Positions 1 to 5,223 of a stretch of 5,223 nucleotides of DNA are shown in pieces (position 1 is the stretch's first letter; each line of letters starts with the position of its first letter). The notes beneath the pieces are model-generated. The model searched no databases. It was given only the letters and a program-made list of their open reading frames with translations, and was not told where the DNA came from. Origin of the DNA: a virus (taxonomy: Duplodnaviria; Heunggongvirae; Uroviricota; Caudoviricetes); IMG/VR virus record IMGVR_UViG_2740892230_000026. The stretch is one strand, 5' to 3'. The position numbers and the translations under genes are program-made.

Positions 1-22
1 TAACACTGTGTTACCTGGCTAA

Positions 23-646
23 TCAGAATTTATAGCCGATACCCACGATGAAGCCGTCAGTGCGCCAGTCGCCACTGGCGGAACCTTCATAAGCAAGGTC
101 AATAACCACCGTCTCTACGGGACTGAACTGAATCCCGGCATTCCAGGCCGGCGACAGATGACGCGCAGTATGGCCATCACTGGCGGTGGTGGTCTCCTTC
201 ACATACCCCGGTTTCACTTCATCACGCCGGTAATCCTGAACACTGTCAGACCAGCGGGTGTACGCCATCCCGGCCATGCCATAGAGACTGACCCGCTCAC
301 TGAGCTGCCAGACAGGGCCGGCCATCAGACTGACATAACGACCGCGCAGGCTTTCATAATGGAAGGTATTTTCACCCGTCTTCATCGTGTCACTTTTCTT
401 CACCGATGCATAACTCAGCGCGACAATGCCGCCCAGGTGATCCGTGAACTCATAACGGTATTTCACATTAATCCCTTTTAAATCACCTGCACGCGCACCG
501 GTACCGGACAATGCCGGTACGCCGCCCGGGTGAACCTGAGCATATCCCACGGAAAATGCACCGTGTCCGCTTTCAGCCTGTGCAGGAAGGGAAATGCCTG
601 TCAGCAGTGCGGTCCAGAATAAAATGGCTCCGTATAAATGTCGCAT
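23..646 (-). CDS. lom: Lom-family outer membrane beta-barrel protein (Ail/Lom/PagC/OmpX family), lambdoid prophage lysogenic-conversion gene
   Basis: Complete 207-aa ORF on the minus strand: ATG at 646..644, TGA at 25..23. A GAGAGG Shine-Dalgarno-like motif sits about 5 nt upstream of the ATG. The N-terminus MRHLYGAILFWTALLTGISLPAQA/ESG looks like a signal peptide with an AxA cleavage site. The C-terminus ends ...DWRTDGFIVGIGYKF, the aromatic terminal residue typical of beta-barrel outer membrane proteins. The motifs NVKYRYEFTD and AYEGSGSGDWRTDGFIVGVGYKF match my recollection of phage lambda Lom, and the gene sits immediately downstream of J as in lambda. Confidence 0.9.
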   Translation of the reverse strand: MRHLYGAILFWTALLTGISLPAQAESGHGAFSVGYAQVHPGGVPALSGTGARAGDLKGINVKYRYEFTDHLGGIVALSYASVKKSDTMKTGENTFHYESLRGRYVSLMAGPVWQLSERVSLYGMAGMAYTRWSDSVQDYRRDEVKPGYVKETTTASDGHTARHLSPAWNAGIQFSPVETVVIDLAYEGSASGDWRTDGFIVGIGYKF

Positions 647-670
647 GATGACCTCTCGTTTTCAGTCAAT

Positions 671-695
671 AAAAAAGGCACCTCCTGAGGTGCCC
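671..695 (-). terminator. Rho-independent terminator downstream of J (analogous in position to lambda tJ)
   Basis: On the minus-strand transcript the sequence is GGCACCU-CAGG-AGGUGCC, a 7-bp GC-rich stem with a 4-nt loop (plus coordinates 677..694), immediately followed by UUUUUU (plus A-run 671..676). It lies 19 nt after the J stop codon (716..714) and before the lom ribosome-binding site. The T-tract is on the minus strand only, so it terminates minus-strand transcription only. Confidence 0.55.
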
Positions 696-713
696 GTCCG
701 GGTTAATAAACCG

Positions 714-2369
714 TCAGCTGATACTGATCCCTGCTGTGGATTTTTTCATGACCACAACCAGTAAATCACTGATGTACGTTGTCGGCGTCCAGTTGTTCGC
801 ACCGGCCGACGACACATTAAACGTCAGGGTGACATGACCCCGCCCTGCCGGCATATCTATCACCGATGAGAACACCCGGCTGACATCCGTTGCCGGTTCA
901 TGGAAAATCTCAACCCCGTTCTTCAGCACCTGCAGCTTACAGGTGGAATACCAGTACGACTGCTGATTCGGGCTGTTGAAATTCTGGTGTTTCGTCCCGC
1001 GAAACAGCACCGGGGGAATGATGATCTGCCGGTCGAAGCCCTGGTCATCGTAAACTGTGACGGTTACCGTCCCGCTGGCATAACTGTTATTCCGGGGAAA
1101 GGCTTTCCCCACCGTCTTCACCAGGTCGCCTTCAATCTGGTTTGCAGACAGTTTCCCTCTGATGACACAGTTCTCGTTAATGGTGACATTATTGAGCGTG
1201 CCGGTATTCGCGGTAATTGCTCCGCTGATATCCGCGTTCCTGGCTGTCAGCTTCCCTTCCGGCGTCAGGGAAAACGTCGGGGGGTTGCCGGATGACGTGA
1301 TACTCACCGCAAACAGTCGTTTCAGGAACACGTCGTNNNNNNNNNNCGGCGTCAGGGAAAATGCCGGAGGATTGCCGGATGACGTGATGCTCACCGCAAA
1401 CAGTCGTTTCAGGAACACGTCGTTCATGAACAGCTGATTCCCCTGCGCCACAAATAACGGCGTGCTGTTGCCGCTCTCCGGATTTATCATCGCGATACGG
1501 TCAGCCAGCAGCAGTATGTTGCTCAGTGGCTGGCCATCAGTATCCTCAATCCCTGCACCAATCCCGGCCACATAGGGTATGCCATTTTTTGTTTTCTGTA
1601 CCTTCAGCATGTAAAGTGCAGCAAGGTCATCATTTGTGTCCTTCTGCACGCGCTGTANNNNNNNNNNAATGCCGTCTTTCGTTTTTTGAACCTTCAGCAT
1701 GTACAGCGCAGCCAGGTCATCATTTGTGTCCTTCTGCACGCGCTGTATCTGCTGTATGGTGGCGCTCTGGTCCTCCAGCGTTTTACTGACCGTCTGTGTG
1801 ATTTCATTGCGGGTTTCGGTGATGGAGGTCTTCATCTCCGCCATCTCATCCGCAAGCTGGCTGTTGTCTATCAGCTCCCACAGCCCCTGAGCCAGATGCA
1901 GTTTTCCTATTTTTTCCCGAAACAGCCCCAGATACCCTTCTGCATCATTGCTGGCCCGGCCACTGGCTTCCACAAAAGCAGATTTCCCCACCAGGTTGAC
2001 GCTGCGCACGTNNNNNNNNNNCGTGATGCTGGTCTTCATCTCCGCCATCTCATCTGCAAGCTGGCTGTTATCTATCAGTTCCCACAACCCCTGAGCCAGA
2101 TGCAGTTTTCCTATTTTTTCCCGGAAAAATTCCAGATACCCTTCACCATCATTGCTGGGCTGCCCGCTGACTTCCACAAACGCAGATTTCCCCACCAGGT
2201 TGACGCTGCGCACGTAAAACCAGAAATCCTTCCCGGGCTTAATGTGCGGGCCGGATACACTCCACTGACTGCCGGTCCCCAGATAACGGGCAGAGGTTTC
2301 CACCTGAGATGTGTCTGCGATTTTTGCCTCCGAAAACCAGAACTCAAACTGTACCGTCGGGTCATACAC
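714..2369 (-). CDS. J: gpJ C-terminal fragment as an ORF caller would see it (part of the J locus, not a separate gene)
   Basis: Six-frame ORF of 551 aa ending at the authentic J stop (716..714). The apparent start at 2369 is an internal GTG; the J frame continues upstream (...[19 protein letters not shown]). It crosses the N runs at 1337..1346, 1658..1667 and 2012..2021 and so contains duplicated peptides, for example [19 protein letters not shown][A/T]FSLTP twice and [14 protein letters not shown]... twice. Confidence 0.6.
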
Positions 2370-5223
2370 CGCAAGACGCGGGACCGCTGTTATCTGAAAA
2401 TAGCCCGGTGTCAGCTCAATCGTGGCGGGTACCGCAGGTGCATTAATCCTGAACGTGGTGGTGGCCGGTTCCCCCTGCTGGCCATAACTGTTAATCGCCC
2501 TGACTGTCAGGGTGTATTCCCCNNNNNNNNNNCGTTATCTGAAAATAGCCCGGTGTCAGTTCAATGGTGGCGGGTTTTGCTGGCGCGTTAATCCGGAAGG
2601 TGGTGGTGGCCGGTTCGCCCTGCTGGCCATAACTGTTAATTGCCCTGACCGTCAGGGTGTATTCCCCCGGCGGCANNNNNNNNNNGGGCGGCAGACCACT
2701 GAAACGATGCTCTGTATCCGCAGTGATGGCGGTGGTCACCAGACGGCTGTCTTCTCCGCTTCCGCTGGTCAGGCGCAGACTGAAGCGCACACCCTTCANN
2801 NNNNNNNNCGGCGGCAGACCGCTGAAACGGTGCTCTGTATCCGCGGTGATGGCGGTGGTCACCAGACGGCTGTCCTGACCGCTTCCACTGGTCAGGCGCA
2901 GACTGAAGCGCACGCCCTTCACCACCCGCGGCGTGTCCCATTTCGCCTGTGCCAGATACTGACCGTCAGCCGCGCTCACCTCCACCGTGAGGTGCTGCAC
3001 TGCCGGTGGGATGACGCTGTTCAGGGAACCTGACTGCGGCTCAAAGCGGGCACCGTTATCCANNNNNNNNNNATATTCCCCGCTGTCTGCGGTGACTTCG
3101 GCGGTCAGGTGCTGCACCGCTGGAGGGATGACGCTGTTCAGGGTGCCTGACTGCGGCTCAAAGCGGGCACCGTTATCCACGATGGCTTCTTTTTCCGGTA
3201 CGTGCTGCACCGCCGTGATGGCAAAGGTGCCGTCCGTGTTTTCCCGGACGGAGACACAGCGGAACAGGCGACGGCGCAGTGACGGCAGGGAGAGTCCCCA
3301 CACCCCGTATGTCTCCACACCATCAGGCAGGGTACTGACCTGTATCCGGTCCGGCGCGGGGTGTTCGGTGATGTCCACACTCACTGGCTTACCGCTGCCG
3401 TTAATCAGGTTCACCGTGGCGGCACCTGTCTCCGGCAGGGTCACCTCACGGTCCAGTGTCAGGGTGCGGCTGGCGGCATCGATGGACAGGATACGTCCGC
3501 CGGTCATGGTCCCGGCATAGTCGTTANNNNNNNNNNAAGTGTCACTTCACGGTCCAGCGTCAGGGTGCGGGTGGCAGCATCAATGGACAGGACACGTCCG
3601 CCGGTCAGGGTCCCGGCATAGTCGTTANNNNNNNNNNGCTCTGGTCGCCGTCAAAGTGCGCTCCGTTATCCACGATGGCTTCTTTTTCCGGTACGTGCTG
3701 CACCGCCGTGATGGCAAAGGTGCCGTCCGTGTTTTCCCGGACGGAGACACAGCGGAACAGGCGACGGCGCAGTGACGGCAGGGATAGTCCCCATACACCG
3801 TATGTCTCCACACCATCAGGCAGGGTGCTGACCTGTATCCGGTCCGGCGCGGGGTGTGCGGTGATGGCCACACTCACCGGCTTACCGCTGCCGTTAATCA
3901 GGTTCACCGTGGCGGCACCGGTCTCCGGCAGTGTCACCTCACGGTCCAGCGTCAGGGTGCGGCTGGCGGCATCGATGGACAGGACACGTCCGCCGGTCAT
4001 GGTCCCGGCATAGTCGTTATCACAGATTTCAATAATGTCACCGGGTGTGTGACGCAGCCCCTGTGACCCGAGCGTGAAATCCACCGTCTGCGTTTCCAGC
4101 AGTCCGGTCTTTATCACCCACAGCCCGGCACGGTGGGCCTGACCGCGACTGGTGCAACCGAACGCATCCATCTTCAGCAGGTTGCGCCCGTAGCGCAGTA
4201 TGGCTTCCGGGTCTTCCACCANNNNNNNNNNTCGGTCTTTATCACCCACAGTCCGGCACGGTGGGCCTGACCGCGGCTGGTACAGCCGAACGCGTCCATC
4301 TTCAGCAGGTTGCGTCCGTAGCGCAGTATGGCTTCCGGGTCTTCCACCAGTTCCGTGGAGGTCTGCCAGCCGTTCTGCGGGTCGGTGTAATTCACCTCCA
4401 CCGCCGTGTGCCGGTCCTTCAGGGCACTGAAGCTGTAGCGGAATCCCACGCCGTTATCATCCACCACCACATCGCTGTTGGTGTACGGCCACACCACATC
4501 CGACGGGCGGTCCTGAACGAACGTCAGCGTCTGGCCGTTCCATACCGGCATACAGCGCATCGCCGAGCAGAAATCACTGAGAACGTCCCACGCCTTACGC
4601 TGTTGTGACAGGTACGCATTAAAGGTCATCCGCGGCTCTGTGCCCCCGAAACCATCCGGGACCGTCTGGTCGCAGTACTGCCCGATGGCATACAGCGCCC
4701 ACTNNNNNNNNNNCCCTCCGAAGCCGTCCGGGACACGCTGGTCACAGTACTGCCCGATGGCATACAGCGCCCACTTGTNNNNNNNNNNTCCCACACCTTC
4801 ATTGTCAGCCACCACATCACTGTTTGTGTAGGGCCACACCACATCTGACGGACGGTCCTGCACAAACGTCAGCGTCTGCCCGTTCCATACCGGCATACAG
4901 CGCATCGCCGAGCAGAAATCACTGAGAACGTCCCACGCCTTACGCTGTTGTGCCAGGTACGCATTAAAGGTCATCCGCGGCTCGGTCCCCCCGAAACCAT
5001 CTGGGACCGTCTGATCGCAGTACTGCCCGATGGCATACAGCGCCCACTTGTCCACATCCGCGGCCCCCAGGCGTTTTCCCATGCCGTAGCGCGGGTGAGT
5101 CAGCATGTCCCACAGGCACCAGGCCGGGTTGTTGCTGTATGCCGGTTTCAGGCTGCCGTCCCAGATGCCGCTGTACGTGCGTTTTTCCGGGTCATAGTTT
5201 GACGGTACCTGAATGATGCGACC
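714..5223 (-). CDS. J: host specificity protein J / tail tip central fibre (gpJ), 5'-partial (N-terminal part lies beyond the window), interrupted by 12 N10 assembly gaps with redundant overlapping blocks
   Basis: The minus-strand frame is open from the window edge: 5223->5104 translates to [41 protein letters not shown], continuing [44 protein letters not shown]..., which I recognise as the gpJ region that follows the N-terminal portion. Further J-like stretches follow in order down to the TGA at 716..714: ...[16 protein letters not shown]..., ...[34 protein letters not shown]..., ...[29 protein letters not shown]..., ...[18 protein letters not shown]..., ...[15 protein letters not shown].... 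Gene order J then lom matches lambda. The true reading frame is broken and re-entered at the N runs, so a single clean translation cannot be given from this assembly. Confidence 0.88.
2491..3507 (-). CDS. J: gpJ central fragment (artefactual ORF piece of the J locus)
   Basis: Six-frame ORF of 338 aa with J-like sequence ([34 protein letters not shown]..., [14 protein letters not shown]..., [17 protein letters not shown]...). It crosses the N runs at 2523..2532, 2676..2685, 2799..2808 and 3063..3072. Its stop at 2491 is created by the frame shift at the 2523..2532 gap and is not a real gene end. Confidence 0.5.
3605..4249 (-). CDS. J: gpJ central fragment (artefactual ORF piece of the J locus)
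   Basis: Six-frame ORF of 214 aa with J-like sequence ([30 protein letters not shown]..., [40 protein letters not shown]...). It crosses the N runs at 3628..3637 and 4222..4231. Its start and stop are by-products of the gaps. Confidence 0.5.
   Translation of the reverse strand: MGDKDRXXXXVEDPEAILRYGRNLLKMDAFGCTSRGQAHRAGLWVIKTGLLETQTVDFTLGSQGLRHTPGDIIEICDNDYAGTMTGGRVLSIDAASRTLTLDREVTLPETGAATVNLINGSGKPVSVAITAHPAPDRIQVSTLPDGVETYGVWGLSLPSLRRRLFRCVSVRENTDGTFAITAVQHVPEKEAIVDNGAHFDGDQSXXXXTTMPGP
4174..5106 (-). CDS. J: gpJ N-proximal fragment (artefactual ORF piece of the J locus)
   Basis: Six-frame ORF of 310 aa beginning at an internal Met ([14 protein letters not shown]...). The authentic frame is open further upstream to the window edge at 5223. 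It crosses the N runs at 4222..4231, 4704..4713 and 4779..4788, and [13 protein letters not shown][T/R]VPDGFGG appears three times because of redundant blocks. Confidence 0.5.
   Translation of the reverse strand: MLTHPRYGMGKRLGAADVDKWALYAIGQYCDQTVPDGFGGTEPRMTFNAYLAQQRKAWDVLSDFCSAMRCMPVWNGQTLTFVQDRPSDVVWPYTNSDVVADNEGVGXXXXKWALYAIGQYCDQRVPDGFGGXXXXWALYAIGQYCDQTVPDGFGGTEPRMTFNAYLSQQRKAWDVLSDFCSAMRCMPVWNGQTLTFVQDRPSDVVWPYTNSDVVVDDNGVGFRYSFSALKDRHTAVEVNYTDPQNGWQTSTELVEDPEAILRYGRNLLKMDAFGCTSRGQAHRAGLWVIKTXXXXWWKTRKPYCATGATC

Follow-up and report, generated by a model that had tools for sequence, protein, structure and literature searches.

Three Alleles of a Prophage J Segment in One Viral Record Lie on Overlapping Contigs Joined by N Spacers

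Introduction

A stretch of 5,223 nucleotides (nt) from the IMG/VR virus record IMGVR_UViG_2740892230_000026 contains three mutually different copies of one 90-nt segment of J, the host-specificity gene of lambdoid phages. How do three versions of the same gene segment come to stand side by side? We analyzed the whole stretch (below, the window), which consists of parts of J and of the neighboring gene lom. We found the window to be a scaffold of overlapping contigs, so that the three copies are adjacent on no real molecule. Very probably, these are draft contigs of a multi-copy prophage J from one poly-lysogenic Escherichia coli, strung together with spacers of 10 N.

That many lambdoid prophages, with J genes that are paralogous and mosaic, reside in pathogenic E. 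coli is well documented, and it is for this reason that short-read assemblies of such strains break in prophage tail regions. Short reads are unable to resolve paralogous prophage features in enterohemorrhagic E. coli (PMC5359411).

Results

Three Copies of a 90-nt Segment Align to One Stretch of J

An earlier reading made from the letters of the window alone (the sequence-only reading) had reported three mutually different copies of a 90-bp J segment, and the observation was borne out by both a repeat finder and direct alignment. The repeat finder placed the copies in one family (D3), at 3437–3536, 3538–3637, and 3930–4029. The segment proper, 90 nt in length, is present as three alleles, which we refer to as A, B, and C and name by the amino acids at three variable positions:

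Positions 3437 to 3526, minus strand: allele A (M,I,S) of the 90-nt segment, found exactly in finished J genes.
Positions 3537 to 3627, minus strand: piece 9, which stands alone as a contig of 91 nt and constitutes allele B (L,V,T; the 90-nt copy is at 3538–3627), with N runs at 3527–3536 and 3628–3637 on either side.
Positions 3930 to 4019, minus strand: allele C (M,V,S) of the 90-nt segment, found exactly in finished J genes.

Nucleotide alignment showed that the three copies are distinct. Over 90 nt, Hamming counts gave three substitutions between A and C, five between B and C, and eight between A and B; the first two values agree with the earlier counts of 2–3 and about 5. The copies are thus mutually 91–97% identical, far above chance. 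When read on the minus strand in the J frame, the segment encodes NDYAGT[M/L]TGGR[I/V]LSIDAA[S/T]..., and the M/L, I/V, and S/T changes proposed previously are correct in this frame. A second triple, for which a T/R change had been proposed, is also real. Its three copies, at 4643–4703, 4715–4775, and 4988–5048, encode a peptide ending in [T/R]VPDGFG and differ from each other at seven, two, and nine positions in pairwise comparisons.

Alleles A, B, and C all align to one and the same 90-nt stretch of an intact J gene, at positions 5293–5382 of the intact J-lom region of phage 2851 (L001 below), which corresponds to approximately codons 503–533 of the phage 2851 J.

The Window Is a Scaffold of Overlapping Contigs

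The window is made of 13 pieces, 65–1336 nt in length, which are split by 12 runs of N, each exactly 10 N long. The two members of any direct repeat in the window belong to different pieces, with an N run between them, and each repeat boundary coincides with an N run. All 13 pieces map on the single J-lom locus of L001, with both genes on the minus strand of the window. The pieces other than piece 9 (listed above) are as follows:

Positions 1 to 1336, minus strand: piece 1, containing lom, the intergenic region, and the C-terminal receptor-binding part of J; the J stop codon is at 714–716, and an N run (1337–1346) comes next.
Positions 1347 to 1657, minus strand: piece 2 (J), L001 3897–4207, overlapping pieces 1 and 3; 34 nt at its right end are in common with the interior of piece 3.
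Positions 1668 to 2011, minus strand: piece 3 (J), L001 4128–4471, with a 34-nt junction with piece 4.
Positions 2022 to 2522, minus strand: piece 4 (J, Ig-like domains), L001 4278–4778, matching Pfam Ig_J_second (E = 2.2e-40) and Ig_J.
Positions 2533 to 2675, minus strand: piece 5 (J), L001 4644–4786, 90.3% identical to piece 4 in their overlap.
Positions 2686 to 2798, minus strand: piece 6 (J), L001 4781–4891, allelic to the left part of piece 7 (repeat family D7, 93%).
Positions 2809 to 3062, minus strand: piece 7 (J), L001 4781–5035, with a 34-nt junction with piece 8.
Positions 3073 to 3526, minus strand: piece 8 (J), L001 4957–5382, ending in allele A.
Positions 3638 to 4221, minus strand: piece 10 (J, Phage-tail_3 in Pfam), L001 5001–5584 at 97.8% identity, holding allele C.
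Positions 4232 to 4703, minus strand: piece 11 (J, Phage-tail_3), L001 5468–5938, ending in copy 1 of the second triple, with a 34-nt junction with piece 13.
Positions 4714 to 4778, minus strand: piece 12, a 65-nt stand-alone contig with the R allele of the second triple, L001 5878–5941, with a 34-nt junction with piece 13.
Positions 4789 to 5223, minus strand: piece 13 (J toward the N-terminus), L001 5680–6113, open in the J frame and holding copy 3 of the second triple.

As can be seen from these coordinates, adjacent pieces overlap on the J gene of L001. Altogether, ~3.9 kb of pieces lie over 2.3 kb of J, with 908 nt covered once, 1210 nt twice, and 192 nt three times. The main stretches with three-fold coverage are the 90-nt segment (L001 5293–5382) and the second triple (L001 5878–5938). 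In finished E. coli genomes, pieces 8–10, which together span 1149 nt, collapse to ~659 nt of a single J. Tandem partial copies of J were absent from 5,426 finished genomes, in which the region collapses to one J. Since the pieces overlap on the intact gene, are separated by N spacers, and collapse in finished genomes, the window is a scaffold of overlapping contigs. The side-by-side arrangement of alleles is therefore an artefact of assembly and scaffolding. The picture of the window given by the sequence-only reading thus stands with respect to the three alleles, while the N-joined overlapping contigs had been left unmentioned, and the copies are not neighbors in real DNA. Since the apparent tandem repeats stem from the way the draft assembly was constructed, neither gene calls made across N spacers nor repeat annotations in the window should be trusted.

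The right-end coordinates of consecutive pieces on L001 never fall (3973, 4207, 4471, 4778, 4786, 4891, 5035, 5382, 5382, 5584, 5938, 5941, and 6113), and the order of the left-end coordinates is different. The order of pieces thus follows the right-hand, not the left-hand, reference coordinate. Because of this, it is probable that the scaffold was put together in the opposite orientation and that its contigs were sorted by their mapping start along the sense direction of J.

Phage tail genes in other systems use cassette or diversity-generating retroelement (DGR) diversification, and we considered whether the repeats could be real silent partial J cassettes located beside an expressed gene and used for recombinational or DGR-like switching of the tail tip. 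That tail genes elsewhere diversify in this manner, and that all pieces of the window have the same orientation and are in frame, would agree with such an arrangement. Yet the repeats are bounded in each case by exactly 10 N, pieces are connected by exact 34-nt junctions, and they follow and overlap the gene order, while the finished genomes contain a single J and no tandem partial copies. Moreover, neither a reverse transcriptase nor an invertase open reading frame (ORF) was found in the window, where the ORF list and Pfam reveal only J pieces and lom. The substitutions are not adenine-specific either, as allele A has an adenine at only three of the eight A/B differences, and the differences between pieces are mostly silent third-position changes. 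Finally, the segment is located at codons 503–533, outside the receptor-binding C-terminus. Cassettes of this kind are, in our estimate, exceedingly improbable. A true tandem duplication was rejected along with cassette and DGR switching, on account of the N spacers, the 34-nt junctions, the collapse onto one gene, the missing adenine bias, and the lack of a reverse transcriptase or invertase.

Overlapping J pieces separated by N are present in other public records as well. We observed them in four draft-derived prophage records, IMGVR_UViG_2695420569_000026, IMGVR_UViG_2671180433_000009, IMGVR_UViG_2695420643_000018, and IMGVR_UViG_2681813314_000020. In one such record, for example, the pieces map to L001 3733–5645, 4004–5297, and 3871–5486. 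The artefact thus recurs in viral contig collections.

Contig Ends

At eight of the 12 right-hand piece ends, exactly 34 nt recur inside the next piece, while left-hand ends have nearly nothing in common. The right end of piece 8 lies exactly 34 nt past its last difference from piece 10. The left end of piece 9 falls at the base where a 50-nt identity between an intact prophage and piece 10 sets in; piece 9 is apparently an allele-specific branch of a bubble in the assembly graph, its flanks having gone into other contigs. The shared 34-nt ends apparently are the mark of a de Bruijn assembly with k = 35 at places where paths merge, and it is from these ends that we infer the type of the assembler and the k value. 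A k = 35 graph constructed from two to four J copies of the finished E. coli genome 2013C-3264 (NZ_CP027544.1) broke into 39–114 unitigs of 35–1083 nt, which are similar in size to the window pieces (65–1336 nt). The end of piece 5 (2668–2675) is of a different kind: 8 nt there are equal to the start of piece 7, and no 34-nt junction is formed.

Alleles A, B, and C Are Matched Exactly in Finished Genomes

The differences between the copies could in principle be spurious. If only one or two true J templates existed, the additional alleles would be errors of sequencing or assembly, made at contig ends with low coverage. Pieces 9 and 12, at 91 and 65 nt, are indeed very short, and contig ends hold two of the three copies. 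However, each allele has an exact match in finished E. coli J genes. Allele A is identical (90/90) to J at two loci of finished E2863 and at 3.38 Mb of 2013C-3264. Allele B is identical (91/91) in E2348/69, and its best match is at least 99% in 263 finished records. Allele C is identical (90/90) in O157:H7 F3113 and at 1.28 Mb of 2013C-3264. Piece 12 matches a J copy of 2013C-3264 at 100%. In a biased sample of 66 prophage loci with the segment, 19 alleles were seen, and A, B, and C occurred 32, 9, and 3 times, respectively.

The distribution of differences also argues against errors. Over 1410 nt of pairwise overlaps between the pieces, there are 102 substitutions, 75 of them at codon position 3 (binomial P = 1e-16); 70 of the differing codons are silent and 22 are replacement codons, and there are neither indels nor stops. 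Judged by this codon pattern, the piece-to-piece differences are to be read as divergence under purifying selection and not as error.

The possibility that one allele is a product of the other two was considered separately. At the eight variable sites, C carries the base of either A or B, in the pattern A,B,A,A,A,B,A,B. To form C as a graph chimera of A and B, five switches would be needed between adjacent variable sites that are less than 34 nt apart, which should be impossible in a k = 35 graph. As C could not have been built from A and B in such a graph, three sequences would require three templates.

Based on the exact matches and the codon-position bias, sequencing error was rejected as a source of the alleles, and we assign only a negligible probability to a source with one or two J templates. 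The error scenario, which the sequence-only reading had named as the case that would undo its conclusion, is refuted by the presence of every allele in finished genomes. By the same matches, A, B, and C are to be regarded as genuine J variants. The earlier conclusion that at least three J templates (paralogues or strain variants) are needed is supported by these matches and by the non-chimeric nature of C. The support extends to a minimum of three J templates in the source and no further.

Pieces 6 (2686–2798) and 7 (2809–2921) begin at the same L001 position, 4781, and are 93% identical to each other, forming another pair of alleles.

One Genome or a Mixture of Genomes

Three templates could be supplied by paralogous prophages of one strain or by several strains. 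Finished E. coli genomes contain up to 13–14 J places, with a median of two among genomes that have any. One of them, 2013C-3264, matches the window at several of its J loci. For piece 1, the J-lom locus at 0.57 Mb is among the best matches (99.2% identity); for pieces 2 and 3, the copy at 0.98 Mb ties for best (98.8%); for piece 7, the copy at 1.28 Mb is near-best (96.8%); and piece 8 has its unique best match, at 98.5%, in the J at 3.38 Mb, with the next genome at 94.7%. In addition, pieces 2, 6, and 12 are 100% identical to the 0.98 Mb copy, and piece 10 is 99.5% identical over 571 nt to the J at 1.28 Mb. The three full J copies of 2013C-3264, which reside in three prophages, carry A exactly, C exactly, and a third allele that is one base off A. 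Between 35 and 54% of the length of these copies is common in exact 35-mers. Since a single finished genome contains three alleles of the segment, paralogues are enough, and there is no need to invoke a mixture. What is seen in the window can likely all be accounted for by paralogous prophages of a poly-lysogenic strain related to 2013C-3264.

The same scaffold could also have been made from alleles of different strains or free phages in a mixed sample, such as a metagenome, a contaminated culture, or a pooled assembly. In favor of this, allele B is typical of extraintestinal pathogenic and enteropathogenic E. coli (ExPEC and EPEC) with a single J place, while A and C are found in genomes of the Shiga toxin-producing E. 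coli (STEC) type, and A, B, and C were not found together in any one finished genome among the loci sampled. On the other hand, one finished genome supplies, at four J loci, best or near-best matches to four parts of the window, with piece 8 having its unique best match there, and single finished genomes hold as many as 13–14 J places and at least three alleles of the segment. We therefore consider a mixed sample unlikely and prefer a single poly-lysogenic strain as the source.

A Model of How the Window Was Formed

If the source was a single strain, it would have been an E. coli of the EPEC/STEC type, similar to 2013C-3264, with several lambdoid prophages, each bearing J and then lom. The J copies of such a strain would be ~90–99% identical to each other and have long exact stretches in common. 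A short-read de Bruijn assembler, apparently operating with k = 35, would have been unable to thread the J copies separately, and its output would have been short contigs ending at graph forks, that is, allele-specific branches (down to 65 and 91 nt) and merged shared stretches. From the sorted ends of the pieces and the fixed size of the spacers, we infer that the contigs were then ordered along one J locus, used as a reference, by their map position and joined by spacers of 10 N. Alternative alleles of the same J positions would in this way be placed one after another, with the three pieces over the 90-nt segment contributing A, B, and C.

Several observations weigh against this explanation. 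Exact strings taken from rare parts of pieces 4, 7, 8, and 13 and from across a 10-N join retrieved intact relatives but no record of the source; the string from piece 13 had no match in viral, genome, or metagenome collections. Four of the 12 right-hand piece ends are without the 34-nt overlap. The right end of piece 9 (3608–3627) is only 19 nt past the last variant, at the same position as the end of piece 8. Allele B was not found in the four J loci that were sampled from the 7–11 J places of 2013C-3264, and no finished genome is 100% identical to all pieces. Under the simple k = 35 model, an end of this kind requires one more allele beyond the window. The short right end of piece 9 thus suggests either a further (fourth) allele that shares the Leu variant and lies outside the window, or some other cause of the break. 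With these points taken into account, overlapping draft contigs of a multi-copy prophage J from one poly-lysogenic E. coli, joined by 10-N spacers, are still what we consider very probable.

Piece 8 Is a Mosaic

A 281-nt stretch of piece 8 (3146–3426) is 100% identical to intact IMG/VR prophages at the five loci compared. To the right of this stretch, the intact prophages run on into allele B, while piece 8 runs into allele A. To the left of position 3145, piece 8 is strongly divergent from these prophages. As a whole, piece 8 has no match above 98.5% in finished genomes. The mosaic reflects either a J that recombined naturally or a chimeric path taken in the assembly graph. It is possible, although we consider it doubtful, that some of the pieces record, beyond assembly breaks, real recent recombination between J genes of co-resident prophages. 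If confirmed by long reads, such events would mean that gene conversion shuffles tail-tip segments among prophages inside one host.

Relation to Known J-lom Loci

The content of the window is that of gpJ and lom of lambda, of Shiga toxin (Stx) phages 2851, 1717, and YYZ-2008, and of the Sp/CP-933 prophages of O157:H7, with the Phage-tail_3, Ig_J, Ig_J_second, and Ig_GpJ_C domains. Window pieces are 90–100% identical to annotated gpJ genes of phages and E. coli chromosomes. Ig_GpJ_C is matched on 714–1334 of piece 1 (E = 1.4e-39), and Phage-tail_3 on pieces 10, 11, and 13 (Pfam, E down to 4.9e-28). The host-specificity gene J of Stx and lambdoid phages matches piece 10 at 97.8%; piece 11 is 99.2% identical to the J of E2348/69; and the top match of piece 13 in finished genomes is 97.7%.

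In contrast to lambda-type loci, the window is without a single intact J and consists instead of 13 overlapping fragments with at least three alleles, broken by N. A lambda-type J is one ORF of ~1130–1185 codons, whereas the pieces of the window are each open in the J frame but are barred by the N spacers and overlaps from being read as one ORF; the N-terminal part of J lies beyond the end of the window. The window resembles the fragmented short-read contigs of poly-lysogenic STEC and EPEC in its breaks at forks, k−1 overlaps, and alleles present as small contigs. It is unlike plain fragmented contigs in that the fragments are ordered along the gene and joined by 10 N, which makes them mimic tandem repeats.

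The order and strand of J and lom in the window are the same as in phage 2851, E2863, and 2013C-3264, with lom located downstream of the J stop codon. Two features were identified in this part of piece 1:

Positions 23 to 646, minus strand: lom, a 207-amino-acid ORF for an Ail/Lom outer-membrane beta-barrel protein, matching Pfam Ail_Lom over its full length (E = 5.5e-49).
Positions 676 to 695, minus strand: a predicted terminator-like hairpin followed by a T-run, with an 8-pair stem (GGGCACCT/AGGTGCCT), a CAGG loop, and then TTTTTATTGA.

The hairpin is located between the J stop codon (714–716) and the start of lom (646), and was the one terminator-like site found by a consensus scan, with 0.2 expected.

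In 2013C-3264, an IS3-family transposase interrupts J at both 0.57 and 1.28 Mb, with one protein accession for the two places, and the annotation lists several J and tail genes as frameshifted. Thus, some of the co-resident prophages of 2013C-3264 are decaying.

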